From positions 203,304 through 267,303 of the forward strand of contig CAZIDX010000001.1 in assembly GCA_964538435.1 (NCBI GenBank): a stretch of 64,000 bases of DNA. The letters are read 5' to 3'. Below the pieces are notes generated by a model that saw only the letters and a program-made list of their open reading frames with translations, did not search any database and was not told the DNA's origin. Below, in pieces: positions 1,664 through 11,991 of this stretch. Both the position numbers and the translations under genes were made by a program. Position 1 is the stretch's first letter, and every line of letters begins with the position of its first letter. This DNA comes from an uncultured Gammaproteobacteria bacterium. GTDB lineage: Bacteria; Patescibacteriota; Patescibacteriia; UBA9934; GWF2-40-263.

Positions 1664-2980
1664 CTAACTTTCGAGGACTGACCAGTATGGCTGATCATAA
1701 TTTTCACCATTTATATCCTTCAAGATATCAATGTGTTCTTGTGACAATCCATTCACGAGATCGTTTAAATAACTGATAAATTTATCACGATCATTTAAAG
1801 TAAAAAATCGTGTGTCATATTCACCAATACGAAATTGTTTTCGAGTGCCTTTTGGCAACTCTTTCAAAACTCTAGCCGATTGCTTGTCAACGAACATAGC
1901 GTCACAATATGGCAAGTAACTAGAAATAAATTGCATATCTGCAGTAGATTTTGGTGCCTTCTTTTCTCCCAAACGAGCTGATCGAGCCAATCCCGCAAAC
2001 ATTACTGAGTTAATTTTAAGATAAGGCACATCTAACAGAGAATCGGCGTCATTGAGGTACTTATGAATGATATCCAAAACTTTTGTTTGATCGACACCTT
2101 TTTCAATTGCACTTTGTATAAGTTTACTGAGCAAAGAAAAAGCGGGTGGTGGCAAGATATCGTTTATTTCAAATTGAAAGGTTGGATCAGAAACTGCCCT
2201 CAATGTTGCGTTTTCTCTTCTTTGAACAAAGGCCCTTGTTGAAGTCAATACACCTTTTCCGAAACCGAGAACCTCTTCTCTAACCCTATCCTCGAAAGAC
2301 ATTTCTTCAGACTGCCACCGCTTCCAGATATTTGCCAACTGTTGTTCTGTGGAAGTATTTACTTTTTTCAGGTTATCAATCTCCTCAGCTTGTTGTGAAA
2401 AACCCACCGAAATCCTCATGCCGATCTCCCAAGTATGTAAATCTCTAAATGAAATATTTTGAGGGTCAAGTTCAAATATTGCATGTTTCCCATCTAGCCA
2501 GCAAGCAAAGTGCTGTCGCACTTGTTGTTCTTCAATGACGTGCGCTGGAAACAATGTTTTCCCACCAGAAAAATGTTCGTATAACTTTTTTGCCACCTGA
2601 AAATCAATGCCACCAAAGCTTGACTCATCCTTATGAAAAAAGCTGTCTGGACAAACGATCACTTGTGATTTAGAAGCCCTCTCTAAAGCAACAAATAGAT
2701 CGTGCCAAAATGGGTCTCTTTTTATTCGCTCATGACTTGGGTGCGTAGAATCAAGTAGCTTTATCAGATTACTGATTACAAATTGATCTAAATAAATAAC
2801 CTGCTTAAACAGATCTGGCAGGCTGATACGATTCTGATAATGACATTTCACACATTCTCTTGTGTAATAATTGTCACCTGAAATAATAATCAAAACACCA
2901 AAAGATGTTTTGCTCTTGCATGAAGGACAATCTTTATAGGGTTCAGTTATTAAATCATTTCTTGATAACTCTTGAGCCAT
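1664..2980 (-). CDS. Hypothetical protein with N-terminal CxxC…CxxC zinc ribbon, last gene of the RM operon
   Basis: ORF 1664..3106. Start moved to MAQELSRNDL… (ATG at 2978-2980), 7 nt after the upstream gene stop. Motif CPSCKSKTS…ECVKCH. No recognisable catalytic domain. Confidence 0.45.
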   Translation of the reverse strand: MAQELSRNDLITEPYKDCPSCKSKTSFGVLIIISGDNYYTRECVKCHYQNRISLPDLFKQVIYLDQFVISNLIKLLDSTHPSHERIKRDPFWHDLFVALERASKSQVIVCPDSFFHKDESSFGGIDFQVAKKLYEHFSGGKTLFPAHVIEEQQVRQHFACWLDGKHAIFELDPQNISFRDLHTWEIGMRISVGFSQQAEEIDNLKKVNTSTEQQLANIWKRWQSEEMSFEDRVREEVLGFGKGVLTSTRAFVQRRENATLRAVSDPTFQFEINDILPPPAFSLLSKLIQSAIEKGVDQTKVLDIIHKYLNDADSLLDVPYLKINSVMFAGLARSARLGEKKAPKSTADMQFISSYLPYCDAMFVDKQSARVLKELPKGTRKQFRIGEYDTRFFTLNDRDKFISYLNDLVNGLSQEHIDILKDINGENYDQPYWSVLES

Positions 2981-2987
2981 AGGCCAC

Positions 2988-4475
2988 TCATACCAAGCTA
3001 AGCAGTCTTCTATATATTTCAACCATTGCCAACGTGTCCAGCTTACAGTATTCGAGTAGGTCTTTGGCGATCTGGTTTTTTTCTTTTTGAGAAGTCTCTG
3101 GATCAATCATCTTTTCCCATCGCTCAACTGCTTGGTCACCCTTCTGCACATTCAATGCTTTGTAAGTCAGCTCTGGCACAAGGACTGGTAACACCTTCTT
3201 GATACTCGCACTCCCCATAAACTTTGCATCAACATACATGTTTTTTGAGAAGATATGCATGAGATCAAACATGCGGTCATTCATGCCCTCAAGGAAGTCA
3301 GTGTGTTCTGGATGCAGCTCTGCGAGCTTATTGTTTCGCTGCGATTCGTACGACTTATACCAAGAGATAACAGAACCCTTGTCATCAAAATCTTTTCTCA
3401 TCTGCTCAATGAGCGGCAGGGTCAAATCTTTTGTTGGCTCAGTAATCAAAAACTCTTTATGCTCCATTGTTCCGTCTTCATGCAACACATGTAGCGAATA
3501 CTGGAACGGCACTTGTTCATAAGCACCAAAGCCGCTGAACCGAGGAATTGCAGACGAATAACCCTCATAATCAAAGAAGTGAATTGGAAACACAAGCTCG
3601 TCTAACGCTTCCTTAATAGCCTCATGGTCAATGAGAGGCTTACCAGCCATATAGGCGTTGTATTGGGCTAATTTCGCCCCTGTGAGCTTCTCAGGGTTAT
3701 CTATATCCTCAAATGCGTAGATACCACGATCAATCCAGTCATAAAACAACTTCTTGCTCCCACCAATACGATTGATGTCATGAACCGAATACTCAGGAAC
3801 GTCAGGATTCGAGTAAACAAACGTCGTACATTGCGCATTGCGGCCACGATACAAACACTGACATCCTTTCTCTTCTGGATCGTGTAAATAGGCTTTCAAA
3901 TCACTCATTTGAGCTTGTACCTCTTCCTCGGCACCAAGCACTTCATCGGTTAAATCAGCAATGATAAACAAGTCGTCATAATTAACCTTCGTAAGCATTC
4001 GATACTCACTATTAAGATGAATGACGCCCGACTTAACTATCTTCACACCACAGCCTTCAATAACAGTCTTCTGAAACGCAAGATCATTTACATGATGATG
4101 AGGCACAACACGCTTAACATCATTGGTCGCCTTAACCTCATACAACTCCCAACCACCTAACACTTCGTTAAAGCGCAAAACGTCAGCCTGAACAAAAAAC
4201 TCATCATGCAAAAATGCACCCTGAAAAATGGTGTGTGTTTTTGTTTCAAGAAGACTCTCTGTAAACGGCACTGCATTAGGACCAACAATCTCAACCAAGA
4301 CACCATCAGGAAACAGACCTCTTGCAGCTTCATCCGCAAGGTTTCCTTCTTCAATAATCTTCTTCTCAAACTCAGAAAGTTCTACCCCATCAAAAAGCTC
4401 TGGCTTATGCTTCTTCAGCCAAAGATTCTTCCTGCAATAGGTGTATTCAAGATAGTCAGTCTTTGTGATGTGCAT
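2988..4475 (-). CDS. DUF2779-like nuclease (Cas4/RecB-like PD-(D/E)xK N-terminal region plus exonuclease-like C-terminal region)
   Basis: N-terminus MHITKTDYLEYTYCRKNLWLKKHKPELF fits the characteristic DUF2779 start (…SKS.F..G.QC.K.LWL…H.PEL). Cys cluster CQCLYRGRNAQC. ATG at 4473-4475, 1 nt from the RM stop. Alternative start at 4502. Confidence 0.55.
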   Translation of the reverse strand: MHITKTDYLEYTYCRKNLWLKKHKPELFDGVELSEFEKKIIEEGNLADEAARGLFPDGVLVEIVGPNAVPFTESLLETKTHTIFQGAFLHDEFFVQADVLRFNEVLGGWELYEVKATNDVKRVVPHHHVNDLAFQKTVIEGCGVKIVKSGVIHLNSEYRMLTKVNYDDLFIIADLTDEVLGAEEEVQAQMSDLKAYLHDPEEKGCQCLYRGRNAQCTTFVYSNPDVPEYSVHDINRIGGSKKLFYDWIDRGIYAFEDIDNPEKLTGAKLAQYNAYMAGKPLIDHEAIKEALDELVFPIHFFDYEGYSSAIPRFSGFGAYEQVPFQYSLHVLHEDGTMEHKEFLITEPTKDLTLPLIEQMRKDFDDKGSVISWYKSYESQRNNKLAELHPEHTDFLEGMNDRMFDLMHIFSKNMYVDAKFMGSASIKKVLPVLVPELTYKALNVQKGDQAVERWEKMIDPETSQKEKNQIAKDLLEYCKLDTLAMVEIYRRLLSLV

Positions 4476-4476
4476 A

Positions 4477-7400
4477 TCATTCAGGTTTCCAAACATCATC
4501 AATCTCTCTCATGATACGCTCAGTATTTGTCAAAGCGACGATGATTTTTTGCCAGTGGAGAATGTCGTCAAAAGTCAACCTGCACCCGCATCGATTTTTC
4601 AACCATCTCTGTGCAGGCTTGTATCCACCTATGTGAAAGTCCCAAGTATTTTCAGGAACTTTATCAAAATACTGCGTTTTGTTGATGTACACCTTTCCTG
4701 CATCAAATTTAGGATAACTTTTCTCAATTGTATTCGATCCAGAAAACGGAAACTCTGTTTTGGGCTTATCGGAAGCTTTATGATTCAAAAGGTGATAGTT
4801 ACGCAATTCTCCACCTAGTTTGATCAATTCTACAAACCGCTCGGCTGTGTCAGGATACGGGATGCAAGGAAAGTTTGTGCTCAAAAATTTTACATATTTT
4901 TTTCGGTATGAAGGTGAATACAAAATCGCGTATACATAATCAAATACATCAAGCGGTGAAAAAACATCACCTTCTGTATCATTGATTGTGGTAGCATCAA
5001 AACTGAATCTCAACCCGGTTGACCGTTCTATTTTACTCACGATATCTTGATCTAAATTCGGATTTCGGTATTGATTTTCATTAGTCCCAAATGACGTTTG
5101 ATTTGATTTATCATCATATGTATACAGTGGAAAAATCGCCGACTGTGTCGTGCGTTCAGCAAACTTCGCCTCAGTTATCAGACTGCTAACAAAAAAATGA
5201 TCTGGCCTGCCACTCTTATTACTTCGCGCGCTTGCAAGAGCCAAGTTGTTACCTGTCAGCATGTTTCGCATTACACTCCCTCTGTCTCTTTCAATAAAAT
5301 CTGGACTGTAATAGATGTGTCGGTTATCGAACGGTCTATACGAAATCTGTTTAATATTTTCTGAGTCGTATGAATGCTGTTGCGCTTGCGCTATCTTCCA
5401 GCTCTTATTTTCACGGAGATTATATTTATTCTTAGCTATTATGGGATCAAGTGTTAGAAATTCCTCTATTCTTACTTGTAATTGTTCTTTATCAAAATCA
5501 ATAACGAATGCATCTCTTGATGTCACAATCCCAACCGAATTTATTGGAAACAGAATGTTTAGATAAAAACCTTCCTCATACTTTTCCATTGCTTGAAAAT
5601 CACATCTAACGAATGGGTAATTAGGCGCTTGATTATTTAAAGTAACCCAGTTGATGGATCTAATATCATTATTCATGAGATCGTTATACTTCTCGTTTCG
5701 TTTTCCATAAAAGTCAGCATGAAGTATCTCTGCCAGCTCACTTGTTTTTCTACCATTTTTTATTGCCAAAATGATTGAAACCCCTTGCTTAATATCGAAG
5801 ACATTCTCATCTTTTCCTCCATCTGGTGCAGTCTCATTTCTTTGAGAATTACCATGTAGGTCAACTATATATATTTTGTCGAAGGTCGTAAGTAGATGCC
5901 AACGCATACCTCGAAAAGTTGGGTTATCCAGGTAACCATGATTTGTAACAAATCCAAGAACCCCCTCTCCGCTCTGTTCGATCATGTATTCTGAAAATCG
6001 CATGAACTTCACATAGTCATCATTGATCCATTTTGGATTTCGTTCACGTAATTTTTCTATTCCACCAGGCTCCTTCTTATATGCTTCCATCAGACCCATG
6101 ATGAAGTCACCCTTATTTTTTGACTCACCACTATAAGGAGGATTACCAAGTATGACCACTACTGGAGTCTCTTTTTTAACCTTATTCGCGGCATTTGCTT
6201 CGTTACTAAGCCAGGAAGAAAATAATGTATTTGTATCAGGATGTGCCTCTTCCAAACTATTAGTCAAATAGACACCAAGACGTTCGTTGGTATTTTTCTT
6301 TTGTCTATAACCAAATTCAGTAAGCAATAAATCAAGCTTTAAATGACACATGGCATAAGGTGCCATCAGAAGTTCAAAACCGTGGATTCGAGGTAATAAA
6401 TGTTCATTCACATAACTGTCCCAAATACCTTCCTGCCCTTCGAAGTTTGAGTGTATCTTACGAACAATTTCTGCCAAAAAAGTTCCTGTTCCAGTGGCTG
6501 GATCTAGAATTTGTACTCGATGCACTTCTTTTTCGATCCTTCGTTTTCCATCCTTGTATCGACCATCTGCCATCTGTGCATCAACCTCAACAGTAGTCAT
6601 GCTTGTATCAGCCAGACCTTTTTCCAGATTGAATTCATCTTTTAGAATATCGTCAATCGCCCGAACAATGAATTGAACAACCGGCTCCGGCGTATACCAT
6701 ACCCCACGAGATTTGCGCAGTTCAGGGTTAAACTCAGAAAGAAAAGTCTCATAGAAATGAATGAAAGGATCTAATCGCTTACTCTCAGAATGGAAGCTCT
6801 CCAAAATCTTTTTCACATCCGCAGCCCGGAATACATCTGCAAGCGCATCCACAATCCAAACGATACGATCATCTAGATCAGGACCAGCGACAGTGTTAAA
6901 CAACTTGCGTAAAAAAGGATTTGTTTTTGGTAAGAGTTCAGCTGCTTCTTGTCGACTAAAAGTATCAAGTGTTGGATCATGCAAGCGAGCTGCAAAGAGG
7001 CCGTATGCAATTGTCTGAGCGTACATGTCAGCAAACTCATCTTCTTTCATGTCATGAATCAGCACATTTCGAAAAGCTTGAAGCTCGCTTCGCAGATTAG
7101 ACTCTTCTTCTTCTGAATTTAGTGCTTTTGTGATCACATCTTTCATCAACCTTGCTTTTCCAGCCATGGCTTTTACCAGCCTGGATGCGGATTTGATCGT
7201 CTGACCATTATATGAAATGAAATCAGTTAACAAGTGCTGGAAGCGCTCAACTTCCTTATGATCAAAGATGATTTTATTCTTCTCTTTTGTACCAACGCAC
7301 ACTTGATCAACTTTTTCTCCATTAACAAAAAAACGAAAGTCTAAATAATCTGTTAAAACTAGATTATCTAAACTTTCAAGATATCTTTTTATTTGATCAC

Positions 7401-7653
7401 TGTTCTCGACATCATCAAGAGCAGTGCCAACATCCTTAGCCTCAATATAGCCAATCGGAACCTCTTTTTTTGTAAGAATGAAGTCTGGTGCCCCACACTC
7501 CTGACGCTTAGGTTCATTAACTGCAGAAATATTCTTGTCTAAATTTTCAATGAGGCTCTTTAGCATTGGACGGTAGCTATGTTCCGTTGCTTGGCCTGTA
7601 TCAAACTCTCTTTGGACAGACAAAAAATACTCTGCAAAAGTATCTTCATTCAT
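4477..7653 (-). CDS. Type IIG restriction-modification enzyme (MmeI/YeeA-like: PD-ExK nuclease, gamma-class N6-adenine methyltransferase, target-recognition domain)
   Basis: 1058 aa. N-terminal APDFIL…GYIEAKDVG (PD…EAK nuclease motif). SAM motif I VQILDPATGTGTFL. Catalytic motif IV ILGNPPYSG. C-terminal region …ILYSPSYRKKY…YKPAQRWLKNR typical of MmeI/Type ISP target-recognition and coupler domains. Confidence 0.75.
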   Translation of the reverse strand: MNEDTFAEYFLSVQREFDTGQATEHSYRPMLKSLIENLDKNISAVNEPKRQECGAPDFILTKKEVPIGYIEAKDVGTALDDVENSDQIKRYLESLDNLVLTDYLDFRFFVNGEKVDQVCVGTKEKNKIIFDHKEVERFQHLLTDFISYNGQTIKSASRLVKAMAGKARLMKDVITKALNSEEEESNLRSELQAFRNVLIHDMKEDEFADMYAQTIAYGLFAARLHDPTLDTFSRQEAAELLPKTNPFLRKLFNTVAGPDLDDRIVWIVDALADVFRAADVKKILESFHSESKRLDPFIHFYETFLSEFNPELRKSRGVWYTPEPVVQFIVRAIDDILKDEFNLEKGLADTSMTTVEVDAQMADGRYKDGKRRIEKEVHRVQILDPATGTGTFLAEIVRKIHSNFEGQEGIWDSYVNEHLLPRIHGFELLMAPYAMCHLKLDLLLTEFGYRQKKNTNERLGVYLTNSLEEAHPDTNTLFSSWLSNEANAANKVKKETPVVVILGNPPYSGESKNKGDFIMGLMEAYKKEPGGIEKLRERNPKWINDDYVKFMRFSEYMIEQSGEGVLGFVTNHGYLDNPTFRGMRWHLLTTFDKIYIVDLHGNSQRNETAPDGGKDENVFDIKQGVSIILAIKNGRKTSELAEILHADFYGKRNEKYNDLMNNDIRSINWVTLNNQAPNYPFVRCDFQAMEKYEEGFYLNILFPINSVGIVTSRDAFVIDFDKEQLQVRIEEFLTLDPIIAKNKYNLRENKSWKIAQAQQHSYDSENIKQISYRPFDNRHIYYSPDFIERDRGSVMRNMLTGNNLALASARSNKSGRPDHFFVSSLITEAKFAERTTQSAIFPLYTYDDKSNQTSFGTNENQYRNPNLDQDIVSKIERSTGLRFSFDATTINDTEGDVFSPLDVFDYVYAILYSPSYRKKYVKFLSTNFPCIPYPDTAERFVELIKLGGELRNYHLLNHKASDKPKTEFPFSGSNTIEKSYPKFDAGKVYINKTQYFDKVPENTWDFHIGGYKPAQRWLKNRCGCRLTFDDILHWQKIIVALTNTERIMREIDDVWKPE

Positions 7654-7736
7654 ATTGTGCTTTGGTAGGATTTTATTTGCAAAAAGGGGTCAGGTCGGAC
7701 TACGGACTTTTTCTATCTCAATTTTATCACAAAAAG

Positions 7737-7766
7737 AAAAACGAACGCTATTGATGACGTTCGTTC
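7737..7766. terminator. Palindromic hairpin AACGAACGctattgatgaCGTTCGTT between the two island modules
   Basis: An 8-bp perfect stem is seen directly, downstream of the 7800..8567 gene on the minus strand. Confidence 0.35.
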
Positions 7767-7799
7767 CTCTTGGCTCCGAATTGTGGAGGATGTTAGAAC

Positions 7800-8567
7800 T
7801 CAAATTTCAAAGAACATCTCAATCTCCTCTCTTACAACAGCTTGAATTCTTTCAACAAAAGGTAAGACATACTCGGCCCTCGACTTGTCGTCAGGAACAT
7901 CATTTTCATCAACGTGATAACACGAAGGAGAGGTGGCTACTATTATTATATCTGGCCTCTTTGGTAATGAAGTAAATAGATGGTTTAAAAAAGTCTTTAT
8001 TTCAACATCACTCACAATAGAATCACCTTCGTCCGAAGGATAAAAATAATCAATATCAATATCAAGAAAAAGAATAGACTTGCTAGAAATACCCATCACA
8101 CTTTTACAAAACGACTCTTGATCAACAAAATTTTCAAACTTAAAATTCAATTTACAATCTTTGTTGAAAACCCCACGCACCTGACTCTGACGACACAACG
8201 TAAATATTTTTGCGCCCTCCCCACACTCATAAAGAAAAGGATAAATGAAATTTTCGAATTGCAACCACTCGTTTTCAAAATGATCTATTTCAGATAATTC
8301 CTTAGGCAAATAGTGAAGCATGTCTTTATCAATAACAGCATCAGGATGCGCATCAATGTGCAGAAGGATTATTCTGTTACCACACGACTTTGTCATCAGA
8401 AATCTTTTCCAAACACCATAAGCCAACCTATGATTGTTCATGATGAAATAAGCATTCTTTTCGTCCTTCAATAAAAACCTTCCACCTAAAGCGCTTGTAA
8501 AATCGTTATTTACACTTTCAAGATTTTGCTTATATCTCCAGCCATTATCCTCTTGGTCTAACTCCAT
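7800..8567 (-). CDS. Arginase/deacetylase-fold (ureohydrolase superfamily, UPF0489-like) metallohydrolase
   Basis: Motifs NNHRLAYG … ILLHIDAHPDAV … FLDIDIDYFYPSDEGD correspond to the GGDHS / DAHxD / SxDxDxxDP metal-ligand motifs of the arginase family. Confidence 0.5.
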   Translation of the reverse strand: MELDQEDNGWRYKQNLESVNNDFTSALGGRFLLKDEKNAYFIMNNHRLAYGVWKRFLMTKSCGNRIILLHIDAHPDAVIDKDMLHYLPKELSEIDHFENEWLQFENFIYPFLYECGEGAKIFTLCRQSQVRGVFNKDCKLNFKFENFVDQESFCKSVMGISSKSILFLDIDIDYFYPSDEGDSIVSDVEIKTFLNHLFTSLPKRPDIIIVATSPSCYHVDENDVPDDKSRAEYVLPFVERIQAVVREEIEMFFEI

Positions 8568-8633
8568 AAGTAATAATAGTAGATAAAACCGACCTCGTGG
8601 CCGGAGTATAATTTATCACAAACCTTCTCGATT

Positions 8634-9092
8634 TTATTGTTTTCCCGTGGTGATATTTTCAAAGACCTCCTTAAATTTGTTTCTTTTCCTTTTTTCCATA
8701 AACGACCAATCCATACTCTGCTCCAGAACTTCAATCATGTCAGAATTATCTAGCTCGTATATAACCTCTGACACACCATACTTTAAGGTCCTTCGGAATA
8801 AGTAAATCTTACCTTTGTATTCGAAATAATACGGTCTAACGATATTAAACTCATCTTCAAGCTTTTGTTTCAGAACAGAAAACTCACCGCTACCCCTATC
8901 AACAATTGGCTCTTCTGAAATTTTTGCACGTAATTCCTGTGCCGACAATCCAATATTTTTTGCATTAACAAACGCATCGAAATATCGTTCGTATAAATTT
9001 ATAAAGTACCCAACCACATCAATATCGACCACAAAAGGCTCGTTCGGACCAAATGTCTTCCATTCCAACTCATCTTGTATAACTCTTTTCAT
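8634..9092 (-). CDS. Hypothetical protein (152 aa), part of the four-gene module
   Basis: Intact ORF tightly packed with neighbours (15-nt and 66-nt gaps). No recognisable motif. Confidence 0.4.
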   Translation of the reverse strand: MKRVIQDELEWKTFGPNEPFVVDIDVVGYFINLYERYFDAFVNAKNIGLSAQELRAKISEEPIVDRGSGEFSVLKQKLEDEFNIVRPYYFEYKGKIYLFRRTLKYGVSEVIYELDNSDMIEVLEQSMDWSFMEKRKRNKFKEVFENITTGKQ

Positions 9093-9107
9093 ATTCTAGA
9101 TGCTTAT

Positions 9108-9662
9108 TTACAAAAGCCCCAATTCAGACAAGATACTAGCAGCAACACTATTCTGATTAGTGAGACTGACTTGCTCCGTTATCATCGCACCCGAACACAA
9201 CTCGACCGCTTTCATAAACTTCTTCTCAAAGTCTGCATCGGTAAACTTTTTCAAGAAAAACAAAGCCATCAACAAAACTGACCACATTGTGTAAGTATCA
9301 ACTCCTGTTGCAAACAACCCGAAACCATTTGCTTTCATCTGAAAGTTCATGTGATCCCGATCTGGATCAAAAGATATATCACCAACAAAATTCTTTTTTT
9401 CTGTTCGTGAAAATTCAAGTAAATTATTGATTGCATCTTCTGGAAAATATTCTGAACCCTGTTCCGAAAGCTCATTCAAAGCCATAGAAAGATATTGCAT
9501 CGTTGGATTTCCTTTAAGATTCGAAAACTGTCTCAAAGTAAATAATAGGAAAGCAAGAATTGCGCCTCTTTGATTTTCCTGAGCACTGTCACCAGACGTT
9601 TCAAAAAGAAAAGCTGCCTTATTTTCTTCCTTGCAGTGAATTTCAAAATGTATTGTTGTCAT
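9108..9662 (-). CDS. Hypothetical protein (184 aa), part of the four-gene module
   Basis: Intact ORF, 1-nt gap to the upstream gene. No recognisable motif. Confidence 0.4.
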   Translation of the reverse strand: MTTIHFEIHCKEENKAAFLFETSGDSAQENQRGAILAFLLFTLRQFSNLKGNPTMQYLSMALNELSEQGSEYFPEDAINNLLEFSRTEKKNFVGDISFDPDRDHMNFQMKANGFGLFATGVDTYTMWSVLLMALFFLKKFTDADFEKKFMKAVELCSGAMITEQVSLTNQNSVAASILSELGLL

Positions 9663-9663
9663 A

Positions 9664-10713
9664 TCACTTTTTCCAAGAAGTTTTACCTAAAACTATGTAA
9701 TAGAAAACTTTAGAGATTGCAAAAAATACCGCAACCGTTACCACAATAAACCAAGAACCTATTTCAGGATCATCAAGGTAAAGGGCCCATCCCAACAACA
9801 ATGTTAGCACAAGAGCAACGACATACAGCACCTTTAAGAATCTAAACCAAACCTTGCCTTGCAGTGGATTCTGAGAAACTGGATGTGCTGTGGTGGCATC
9901 GGCTTGTTCTGGAGATGCAACATTGTTCATGTACTCTTCAGGTTTACCAAAAAGACCCTCTGCTAATTCTGAGATGCGTTGGAGCAATTCAGATTCTTTT
10001 TTTGATGACTGTTCTAACAATCGAGTTGCTCTATCCACTCTCAACTTCATTTCTGTTGCGGAAATTTGTTTGGGCATTACCCCATCATTGTCTACAACAA
10101 TTGCTGGAATGATTCTTTCAATTGCAAGATTCTCTTCAAGGGCAGTTGCGGCATCCTTTCTTGCATCCTGTAGTTGATTAACCAAACCATTCCACTCGCT
10201 AAAGTTAGCACCTAAAACTTTAATGGAATCTTCTTGGCTATACTTATGCAATTTTTTGAAATCAATTTTCTTCAAAAATGACTCTATTCGCAACAACAGT
10301 GAAGCAACAACCTCCTGTTGTGTAAGCACACTTTCAAAAACCCGCTCCTCATAAACATCAATGATTTGCATTGCCGTTTTTGCAAGTTTCAAATTCTCCT
10401 CTTGGGTTTGAGTGTTATTAGGATCAGACAAAAGATCAGAAATTCTCTGCAAAGCCACAAAAGCATCATTCTCATCCTTGTGATCAAAATGAAAAGCAAG
10501 ATAGGACCCTTGTTTAATAGACGCTTTCTGAACCTCAGTTCCCAAAGCAATCAACAACTTCAAATTCCGATAATCAATTTTTGATTGTTCATATTCTTCG
10601 CGTGCTTTATCAATCTTTTTCTTGAAAAGGGTAAAAGGGTCAGGTCTATATATGATACTACTTTCTAGATATCTGTCCGATTGTTGAACAGTGAAGCCCG
10701 AGATGTTTCGCAA
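9664..10713 (-). CDS. Coiled-coil protein with C-terminal 2-TM region (possible membrane effector). N-terminus runs into IS-derived sequence, so the gene is likely 5'-truncated.
   Basis: C-terminus …VWFRFLKVLYVVALVLTLLLGWALYLDDPEIGSWFIVVTVAVFFAISKVFYYIVLG has two predicted TM helices. The first ~27 codons (10633-10713) lie in another frame inside the duplicated transposase 3' end and IR. Confidence 0.4.
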   Translation of the reverse strand: MRNISGFTVQQSDRYLESSIIYRPDPFTLFKKKIDKAREEYEQSKIDYRNLKLLIALGTEVQKASIKQGSYLAFHFDHKDENDAFVALQRISDLLSDPNNTQTQEENLKLAKTAMQIIDVYEERVFESVLTQQEVVASLLLRIESFLKKIDFKKLHKYSQEDSIKVLGANFSEWNGLVNQLQDARKDAATALEENLAIERIIPAIVVDNDGVMPKQISATEMKLRVDRATRLLEQSSKKESELLQRISELAEGLFGKPEEYMNNVASPEQADATTAHPVSQNPLQGKVWFRFLKVLYVVALVLTLLLGWALYLDDPEIGSWFIVVTVAVFFAISKVFYYIVLGKTSWKK

Positions 10714-11032
10714 TTTCAGTACTCAAATATCCACATCTAAACCTTGCAAACTTGATAGCATTATCTCGTTCTTGTTTTGATGAAACCCCTTCAAATATTT
10801 CATCAAGTGTGGGTCTGCCAACAATTCGTTGTAAAAGGGTCAGGTCTATATATGATGCTACTTTCTCGATATCTGTCCGATTGTTGAACAGTGAAGCCCG
10901 AGATGTTTCGCAATTTCAGTACTCAAATATCCACATCTAAACCTTGCAAACTTGATAGCATTATCTCGTTCTTGTTTTGATGAAACCCCTTCAAATATTT
11001 CATCAAGTGTGGGTCTGCCAACAATTCGTTGT
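10633..11032. repeat. 200-bp tandem duplication (10633-10832 and 10833-11032, 2 mismatches) covering the left IR and the 3' end of the transposase gene
   Basis: Direct comparison of the two 200-nt units. Confidence 0.85.
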
Positions 11033-11740
11033 TCTCTTGGATACTCTTTGAGCTGTTCAGAGCCGTTTGTATGATTCTCCCAAATCCAATGAACATACTG
11101 AGGAGACCCAAGTATAAATCCATTCGTGAGATCATTATATGGATTATCCGCAGCAATACCATCCATCACAAACTTTCTATACTGTTTCTGTGCTTCTTTT
11201 CTCTCATCTCCAAATAAACTTAGTATCCAATCTGTGTGCAACCACTCAGGACATTTACTCGTTCCTGCTGTGTGTTGGTAACTACTCCACTTCCATTTTT
11301 TGGGATGGTCGCAGAGAGAATCGCGAACCGGGTTCAAGACAATATATCGAGAAACAGCTAGAAGATAGGTGTCTTTTTCTATAACGAATGCCTTGTAGCG
11401 TCCTTGCATCAAATGTCCGACTGTTTTGTGTCGTGCGTTAAAAGATTGCGTGTAGTTTCCATTAATGTCACGCATAGCTTTTGAGAGATTTCCATCAGGG
11501 GTCTCGATAAGTAAGTGGTAATGGTTGTCCATCAAACAATATGCATGAACGATGAGATTGTGTAGTTCAACAGCATCCTGAATCATTTCAAGAAAAAGAA
11601 GACGATCCTTGTCTTCTTTGTAAATATTTTGATAGCCATTACCTCTAGACATCACATGATAGAGGGCTCCAGGATATTCAACTCTCAGTGGTCTTGCCAT
11701 ATGGTTGATTGTAACACATCCTCATATATAGACCTGACCC
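10837..11740 (-). mobile_element. IS200/IS605-like (Y1 HUH transposase) element bounded by 19-bp perfect inverted repeats GGGTCAGGTCTATATATGA, RAYT/REP-like organisation
   Basis: IR at 10837-10855 and its reverse complement at 11722-11740 flank the single transposase ORF. Extra solo or partial IR copies at 1459-1503, 10637-10655 and 7685-7698. Confidence 0.6.
10858..11700 (-). CDS. Y1 (HUH) tyrosine transposase, IS200-like TnpA fused to a DnaA-domain-IV-like C-terminal HTH
   Basis: LYHVMSRGN … CLMDNHYHLLIE (HuH motif) … RYIVLNPV. C-terminus LSTEIAKHLGLHCSTIGQISRK resembles the DnaA C-terminal DNA-binding helix. Confidence 0.8.
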   Translation of the reverse strand: MARPLRVEYPGALYHVMSRGNGYQNIYKEDKDRLLFLEMIQDAVELHNLIVHAYCLMDNHYHLLIETPDGNLSKAMRDINGNYTQSFNARHKTVGHLMQGRYKAFVIEKDTYLLAVSRYIVLNPVRDSLCDHPKKWKWSSYQHTAGTSKCPEWLHTDWILSLFGDERKEAQKQYRKFVMDGIAADNPYNDLTNGFILGSPQYVHWIWENHTNGSEQLKEYPREQRIVGRPTLDEIFEGVSSKQERDNAIKFARFRCGYLSTEIAKHLGLHCSTIGQISRK

Positions 11741-11756
11741 CATAGCACAACTTCAA

Positions 11757-11843
11757 AACCTCCTGACTCGACTGAGCATGTACAAAACCACCTGACGTAA
11801 AAAACAAACTTATAACAAAGACTGCAAAAAGATATTTTTTCAT
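11757..11843 (-). pseudogene. Duplicated 5' fragment of the yibE/F-like gene (promoter plus first ~29 codons) fused to the IS right end
   Basis: 11757-11893 is ~96% identical to 1273-1409. Translating from the ATG at 11841-11843 gives MKKYLFAVFVISLFFTSGGFVHAQSSQEV, then reads into IS sequence. Confidence 0.55.
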
Positions 11844-11916
11844 ACAAGGGAAATTATAACAGATCAGACACCACTCACTTCAAACAAAAAACCACAGCAA
11901 TGCTGTGATTTTTTGT

Positions 11917-11991
11917 TGGCTCGGGGGGTGGGGTTCGAACCCACGACCCACTGGTTAACAGCCAGTTGCTCTGCCACTGAGCTACCCCCGA
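11917..11991 (-). tRNA. tRNA-Asn (anticodon GTT), CCA encoded
   Basis: Reverse complement folds as TCGGGGG-TA-GCTCAGTGGCAGAGC-A-ACTGG-CTGTTAA-CCAGT-GGGTC-GTGGGTTCGAACCCCAC-CCCCCGA-G-CCA. Confidence 0.85.

Follow-up and report, generated by a model that had tools for sequence, protein, structure and literature searches.

Four open reading frames (ORFs) lie on the minus strand within positions 7800-10713 of a 64,000-nucleotide (nt) stretch of DNA (hereafter the window) from an uncultured bacterium placed by GTDB in the Patescibacteriota (assembly GCA_964538435.1, contig CAZIDX010000001.1, positions 203,304 to 267,303). In order of transcription they encode proteins of 349, 184, 152 and 255 amino acids (aa), and a first-pass annotation had put them forward as a candidate novel defence system consisting of an arginase-fold hydrolase, two small proteins and a protein with two transmembrane (TM) helices. 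Here, we report that within the data searched no other genome has the four genes as a conserved unit, and that the region is probably a heterogeneous patchwork of cargo, with no single conserved system, in a horizontally acquired island of ~10.3 kb. The 255-aa enzyme is an uncharacterised short variant of a known family, Pfam PF12640 (UPF0489, now FlmR_OhkR_N), situated among ORFans in a mobile island. The layout described earlier was recovered, with co-directional genes separated by spacers of 1, 15 and 66 nt and located between a Type IIG restriction-modification (RM) gene and a transposase gene in a tRNA-linked island (PADLOC and Pfam matches; tRNA-Asn at 11917-11991). Tight gene spacing within an island is nevertheless insufficient evidence of a system.

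Conservation of the four-gene arrangement

Relatives from the same clade as the 255-aa protein were found in loci L001 and L004 (34% identity) and L005, and in each of these the enzyme gene stands alone. L001 and L004 share only 811 nt, comprising the enzyme gene and 88 nt upstream of it, at 91.6% identity, and their surroundings otherwise differ; therefore, this PF12640 gene, of the type with an NNH motif, is a cassette of a single gene that is found in differing surroundings. The neighbours of the enzyme relatives are an integrase and UmuDC-like genes, a helicase, or an ORF6N protein, and no TM protein is encoded in the same operon as the relatives in L001, L004 and L005. The relative in L005, a Patescibacteria metagenome-assembled genome, is truncated to 165 aa and is without the DxD motif. 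In L004, the PF12640 gene and the helicase gene lie between 30-nt direct repeats (4999-5028 and 8899-8928) that match positions 15813-15842 of L001, beside the L001 integrase.

Searches with tblastn for relatives of the 349-, 184- and 152-aa proteins found none in L001, L004, L005 or any of 23 genome loci, and homologues of the partner genes were absent near the 26 loci with enzyme relatives and the 6 loci in which the 152-aa protein has relatives. The latter six have no neighbour in common besides the 152-aa family gene itself. Apart from the window, the four-gene arrangement was present only on a 9.3-kb contig (L002), whose identity of 99.8-100% along its length means that it is not independent evidence. 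Scans of viral contigs and tblastn searches of phage and plasmid collections returned no relatives of any of the four proteins.

Relatives that are further removed from the enzyme occur in a chromosomal context. In six loci from Bacteriovoracaceae metagenome-assembled genomes (L006, L012, L014, L016, L017 and L022), the short PF12640 gene, of a type with a DNHRLA motif and located at ~8000 in each, adjoins an aldose-epimerase-like gene. The latter lies immediately upstream in the same orientation at four of the six loci; in L012 it runs over the start of the PF12640 gene (7965 vs 7968), and in L022 it abuts that start. The genes metF and metH accompany this pair in L006, L012, L014 and L017, whereas L016 and L022 end short of that region. 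Such a conserved context might hint at a metabolic substrate. The defence proposal had itself named two observations that would count against it, namely homologues in housekeeping contexts and absence of the unit from other genomes; distant enzyme relatives do occur in the metH/metF synteny of the Bacteriovoracaceae and, as far as the data reach, the four genes do not form a unit elsewhere.

Two units and the three upstream genes

Under the patchwork reading, the segment would consist of two units. The first would be a translationally coupled trio that runs from the 2-TM protein through the 184-aa gene to the 152-aa gene, the stop-start junctions indicating translational coupling of these three. 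The second would be a self-contained minimal PF12640 enzyme gene with its own strong terminator, a hairpin (fold z = -3.7) that was equalled in stability by 0 of 200 shuffled sequences. At the composition of the segment (~37% GC, stops at ~7% of random triplets) the chance of an open frame of 349 codons was calculated as ~1e-11, and because such long open frames are far beyond chance the four ORFs are taken to be real genes. All four proteins form singleton clusters. In a Kyte-Doolittle scan, hydrophobic TM segments were confined to the 349-aa ORF, with none in the 184-, 152- and 255-aa proteins.

The two C-terminal TM helices reported for the 349-aa protein were recovered as adjacent hydrophobic segments at residues ~288-316 and ~316-343 (windows above 1.6 at 287-298 and 315-325). 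The long coiled-coil that was said to precede them is weakly supported, as heptad periodicity exceeded that of shuffled sequences for residues ~200-285 only (p = 0.017) and residues 29-200 showed no excess. The protein had no match above the cut-offs in Pfam, NCBIfam, PHROGs, PADLOC or PDB sequences; a single sub-threshold Pfam match was to YqbF_HeH (E = 0.019) and the SLATT family profiles gave none. Among 5.8 billion protein clusters it matched only itself, and tblastn searches of viral contigs, phage genomes and plasmids found nothing. With 2-TM abortive-infection effectors such as SLATT it shares paired C-terminal TM helices after a soluble helical region and a location in a mobile island. 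It differs from them in having no SLATT, Pfam or PADLOC match, no homologues, no conserved partner and a 5' end that is fused to a transposase element; hence, the earlier suggestion of an abortive-infection-type effector comes down to a likeness in topology.

The start of the 349-aa ORF is itself doubtful. Its TTG start codon (10713) and first ~28 codons (10631-10713) fall within the second of the two copies of a tandemly duplicated 200-bp sequence, which consists of the last ~170 nt of the transposase gene and the right terminal repeat of the element. Because the start is inside the duplicated end of the transposase element, the annotated N-terminus is a chance read-through from this element, which is of the REP-associated tyrosine transposase (RAYT) type. 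Beyond the repeat, the first in-frame ATG is at about codon 115, preceded by just a few in-frame TTG codons at about codon 50. The duplication could be real or an artefact of assembly, a point that decides the gene start, and the L002 contig, an independent Logan assembly, breaks exactly there. In the patchwork explanation, the first gene of the trio would have been joined at its 5' side to the right end of the RAYT/IS200-like element and was probably truncated or re-started by the insertion.

The 184-aa protein belongs to no family in Pfam, NCBIfam, PHROGs, PADLOC or PDB sequences, the Csm4 match in PADLOC (E = 0.016, 12.9 bits) being noise. It matched only itself among the 5.8 billion clusters, was likewise without tblastn matches in the viral contigs, phage genomes and plasmids, and gave a single-sequence AlphaFold2 (AF2) model with a confidence (pLDDT) of 48, which is too low to use. 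The 152-aa protein likewise had no match in the five family and structure resources named above, or in viral contigs, phage or plasmid collections, so that the description of the two middle proteins as being without a named family holds. An exhaustive HMMER search of 1.84 billion representatives, however, retrieved six relatives of the 152-aa protein (29-37% identity, all ~150 aa) with a conserved core, VRPYYY..GKYYFFRS; the protein is a member of a tiny unnamed family. Its AF2 model (pLDDT 77) had no fold match.

In L032, a locus of this family, the 152-aa relative has genes for an HATPase_c_2 protein, a DUF4325 protein and a 123-aa ORF upstream of it in the same orientation (351-2635); this is the only locus that places the family in a multigene co-directional array. 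One of the relatives, P0009 (372 aa), looked like a fusion of the 152-aa family to a TM region, a reading that was rejected. The gene call reads four in-frame stops as Gln, and with the standard bacterial code the gene (L028, 76-1194) would stop at residue 151, in line with the other family members. The 372-aa call is either a calling artefact or derived from an organism with recoded stop codons, and because the fusion reads through in-frame stops it was not used to link the family to membranes. At most, a small membrane-anchored complex might be proposed for the trio.

There is a small but appreciable likelihood that the four genes are decaying remnants, that is, inactive hitch-hiking DNA in which the first gene was truncated by the transposase element and the ORFs persist since the insertion was recent. 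The start of the 349-aa ORF inside a duplicated insertion sequence (IS) end would fit such an origin, as would the singleton status of all four proteins and the truncated enzyme in L005, which shows that genes of this clade do decay. It is less easily reconciled with four long intact ORFs in AT-rich DNA, with the preserved stop-start coupling arrangement and intact terminator, or with an enzyme in which the metal ligands and clade-specific motifs are all intact.

The reading of the four genes as a lineage-private abortive-infection or defence operon we regard as unlikely. The hydrolase would in that case sense or modify a phage or host component, the 2-TM protein would be a membrane-disrupting effector and the small proteins would serve as adaptors or immunity factors. 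The genes are indeed co-directional and closely spaced in a low-GC mobile island beside a Type IIG RM enzyme, the 2-TM C-terminus is present, and the enzyme relatives in L001, L004 and L005 are also found among mobile-element genes. Set against this, PADLOC-DB 2.0 returned 0 matches for the 349-, 152- and 255-aa proteins and for the 184-aa protein only the Csm4 noise, no SLATT-type Pfam match was obtained for any of the four, and no described defence system corresponds to anything in the four-gene region. No other locus keeps the unit, the putative effector has a 5' end of IS-derived read-through, distant enzyme relatives are in housekeeping synteny, and phage and plasmid relatives were not found. 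The only remaining support for a private, lineage-specific system is the proximity of the genes in a single genome. If the defence reading were true, an arginase-fold enzyme would join immune chemistry; the evidence does not support that reading, and the literature listed for PF12640/C5orf22 and for arginase together with defence-island or anti-phage topics showed no link between arginase-fold enzymes and immunity.

Several points weigh against a patchwork without a single system. The spacers of 1 and 15 nt imply that at least three of the genes form an operon, and the hairpin before the 255-aa gene is weak (z = -1.5), so co-transcription of all four is possible. The island adjoins an RM enzyme, which would fit a role in conflict for some of its cargo. 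Genomic context was available for few relatives only, four of the six loci with 152-aa relatives being under 3.5 kb. The 349- and 184-aa proteins were searched by a word-indexed method and tblastn only, by which relatives below ~30-35% identity could be missed, and the relatives of the 152-aa protein surfaced only in the exhaustive search.

The 255-aa protein as a short form of PF12640

The 255-aa protein scored 30.1 bits against PF12640 (gathering threshold 27), a label that precomputed annotation also gave to P0001-P0003. It aligned with the sequence of the peptide arginase OspR (PDB 8brp) at E = 2e-7, and the alignment spans all three ligand motifs, which in the 255-aa protein are NNH (H46), LLHIDAHPD (D72, H74 and D76) and LDIDIDYF (D171 and D173). 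The binuclear Mn centre of OspR is bound by H12, D39, H41, D43, D165 and D167 (PMC10028609), and in the alignment these correspond to H46, D72, H74, D76, D171 and D173, respectively. Judged by its sequence, the 255-aa protein is an arginase-superfamily member of PF12640 with intact metal ligands and is very probably active as a metallohydrolase, in agreement with the arginase-family motifs and the probable metal-dependent hydrolysis noted in the first-pass annotation. There was no match to the canonical arginase/ureohydrolase family PF00491 at E ≤ 0.1. In PHROGs the protein matched phrog_32422, of unknown function (E = 1e-4), and the 5.8 billion protein clusters contained two remote matches.

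An alignment with 24 PF12640 members, obtained from a scan of 185,579 species genomes, resolved into four groups. The long form is ~310 aa and carries EEH at every one of its loci, that of Ohtaekwangia koreensis (L009) among them, this strain being the named source of OhkR (PMC12703449). The remaining groups are a DNHRLA type of 226-241 aa in Bacteriovoracaceae, a DNHNHAF type of ~190 aa in Peribacteria, and the NNH clade of the 255-aa protein. Long forms have an insert of ~45-55 residues immediately after DxDxDYF, at which position all short forms, including the 255-aa protein, have a gap. In the characterised enzymes, the residues that follow LDIDLDYFSC form a dimerisation domain (S170-S234 in OspR, P177-P233 in OhkR), which has been proposed to provide the precursor-binding cleft (PMC12703449). 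This dimerisation insert thus appears to be missing from the 255-aa protein.

A second difference concerns Glu11 of OspR, the residue proposed to stabilise the guanidinium group (PMC10028609). The corresponding position is Asn in the 255-aa protein, where NNHRLAY stands in place of EEH(N/H)EAF. The motifs NNHR(L/W)A(Y/F), LLHIDAHPDAV, LDIDxDYF and ATSPSC are invariant across the 255-aa protein and its two full-length relatives, and because the NNH-type motifs are invariant in the clade, the change reflects a clade under selection and not decay. Against the NCBIfam peptide-arginase model NF052474 the protein scored 35.2 bits, compared with a cut-off of 350, and only the N-terminal 80 positions matched.

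The enzymes of known function in this family, OspR, FlmR and OhkR, are peptide arginases of ribosomally synthesised peptides with post-translational modifications (RiPPs). They share with the 255-aa protein the Pfam family and three ligand motifs in the same order, and the conservation of all six Mn ligands makes hydrolysis by a metal-bridged hydroxide likely in the latter too. They differ from it in length (~310 aa) and in having Glu11 and the 45-55-aa insert, and their genes lie in RiPP clusters with a precursor peptide, whereas the 255-aa gene is without both here and stands alone in other genomes. No RiPP precursor, maturase, protease or exporter is encoded in the module, and its neighbours gave no RiPP-related Pfam or NCBIfam match. 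On these alignments and profile scores the 255-aa protein is outside the characterised peptide-arginase group and does not show three defining features of RiPP peptide arginases.

Other short forms resemble it in architecture. The Bacteriovoracaceae and Peribacteria proteins (190-240 aa) have in common with the 255-aa protein the absence of the dimerisation insert, Asn at the Glu11 position and a C-terminal (A/S)(T/L)SP(S/E)C-type motif. They are uncharacterised and just 22-28% identical to it, and the Bacteriovoracaceae genes are in chromosomal metH/metF/aldose-epimerase-like synteny, not in an island. Their NLDLDYF motif has lost the first Asp of LDID and kept both ligand Asp residues.

By analogy with the RiPP enzymes, the four genes could be viewed as a maturation module in which the PF12640 enzyme would convert Arg to ornithine in the co-encoded 152-, 184- or 349-aa protein. 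The precursors on which characterised members of the family act are co-encoded (PMC10028609, PMC12703449), the six metal ligands are all present, and arginines are available in the neighbours (9, 4 and 15, respectively). We nevertheless consider this very unlikely, since EEH, with the proposed guanidinium holder, is NNH here, the proposed precursor-binding cleft is absent together with the insert, and the NCBIfam score is 35 against 350. In addition, there is no small ORF of the leader/core precursor type and no other maturase, protease or exporter, and the closest relatives of the enzyme are without these neighbours.

The explanation that we prefer keeps the enzyme apart from the trio. The enzyme contains the complete arginase binuclear-metal site (His, DxHxD, DxD), and the metal-bridged hydroxide would most likely hydrolyse a guanidino or related C-N bond, as in OspR. 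Because Glu11 and the dimerisation/peptide-binding insert are lacking, the substrate is probably different from a RiPP precursor. The enzyme is probably functional independently of the three genes upstream, in the manner of its closest relatives elsewhere. A more speculative proposal, and in our estimate a long shot, is that the short NNH/DNH-type proteins are stand-alone, protein-directed guanidino hydrolases (e.g. Arg-to-Orn editing) that serve as single-gene mobile conflict cargo, one of which was recruited here beside a membrane-anchored trio as a private abortive-infection unit.

PF12640 therefore includes short clades that have the full binuclear-metal site without Glu11 and the dimerisation insert, of which one is carried as a lone gene by mobile elements and another is syntenic in Bacteriovoracaceae. 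They are candidates for acting on another class of substrate and could inform guesses on the uncharacterised human member, C5orf22.

The island and its other features

The island has a GC content of 35-40% compared with 45-55% outside, and the remainder of the window is ordinary chromosome (DnaG, GatA, LigA, RecJ and LepA). Coordinates of the features are collected in Table 1. The 137-nt direct repeats bracketing the island duplicate the YibE/F promoter and first ~29 codons, leaving a 5' gene fragment (ORF 11685-11843) beside tRNA-Asn, which was the sole match in a scan of Rfam. As in other tRNA-linked RM islands, a low-GC segment by a tRNA carries direct repeats, internal tRNA-3'-like fragments, an RM enzyme and a transposase. 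This island differs from them in that no integrase is present, the Y1/RAYT-type transposase being the sole mobility gene, and in that the repeat duplicates the start of YibE/F and not the tRNA. The transposase scored 77 bits against the NCBIfam model REP_Tyr_transpos, just under the cut-off of 80.

Table 1. Features of the four-gene segment, the island around it and the cassette shared by relatives of the enzyme
Feature	Position	Strand	Remarks
349-aa ORF	9664..10713	-	TTG start; helical soluble part, then C-terminal 2-TM hairpin
184-aa ORFan	9108..9662	-	Starts 1 nt past the 349-aa stop (TGAtATG); no TM segment, no family
152-aa protein	8634..9092	-	Very small unnamed family, ~150 aa; solo gene elsewhere
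255-aa short-form PF12640 (UPF0489/peptide-arginase family) binuclear-metal hydrolase (predicted)	7800..8567	-	Profile and ligand alignment
Weak terminator-like hairpin	8589..8604	-	In the 66-nt gap between the 152-aa and 255-aa genes; fold z = -1.5
Strong intrinsic terminator	7734..7771	-	Directly 3' of the 255-aa gene; 15-bp stem and T-run
Shared 811-nt NNH-type PF12640 cassette	L004 7901-8711; L001 9913-10723		
137-nt direct repeats	1273-1409 (right copy); 11757-11893 (left copy)		94% identity; bracket the island
tRNA-Asn(GTT)	11917..11991	-	Island border
Y1 (IS200-like/REP-associated) tyrosine transposase	10858..11700	-	Pfam Y1_Tnp
19-bp inverted repeat GGGTCAGGTCTATATATGA	11722-11740; 10837-10855; 10637-10655	-; +; +	Flanks the transposase
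Tandem duplication, 2 x 200 bp	10631-10830; 10831-11030		99% identity, perfect register
Type IIG RM enzyme	4477..7653	-	PADLOC REase_MTase_IIG, E = 0; Pfam Type_ISP_C; neighbour, outside the module
tRNA-3'-end-like fragments ending in ATTCGGAGCCA	1429-1458; 1559-1588; 7770-7799	-	0.05 expected by chance

The three fragments ending in ATTCGGAGCCA suggest that the island was put together from two or more separately acquired segments, the RAYT element and the four genes being in one and the Type IIG RM gene, with those encoding a DUF2779 protein and a 480-aa protein, in another. Given this assembly from segments, the adjacency of the four genes to the RM gene may reflect accretion and not shared function. 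One of the fragments ending in ATTCGGAGCCA (7770-7799) lies directly after the 255-aa gene, between the four genes and the RM segment. In layout the fragments correspond to the T-arm and acceptor end of tRNA-Asn, and each is followed by a terminator hairpin. Their identity as genuine pieces of tRNA-Asn was considered and rejected, since the layout aligns but the sequence differs; they are instead regarded as tRNA-3'-like pseudo-att sites. A CTGAAC..GTTCAG palindrome that recalls REP elements occurs in two of the three.

At the far end of the island, a degenerate solo copy of the GGGTCAGGTCTATATATGA repeat, with three mismatches, is present at 1476-1494 on the minus strand. Positions 1664-4502 of the minus strand, which lie downstream of the Type IIG RM gene with an overlap, encode the DUF2779 protein (504 aa), which has RNase-H-like and weak Cas4-like matches, and the 480-aa (or 438-aa) protein, which has a weak zinc-ribbon match and no family. 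These two proteins may be accessories of the RM enzyme or a separate nuclease module.

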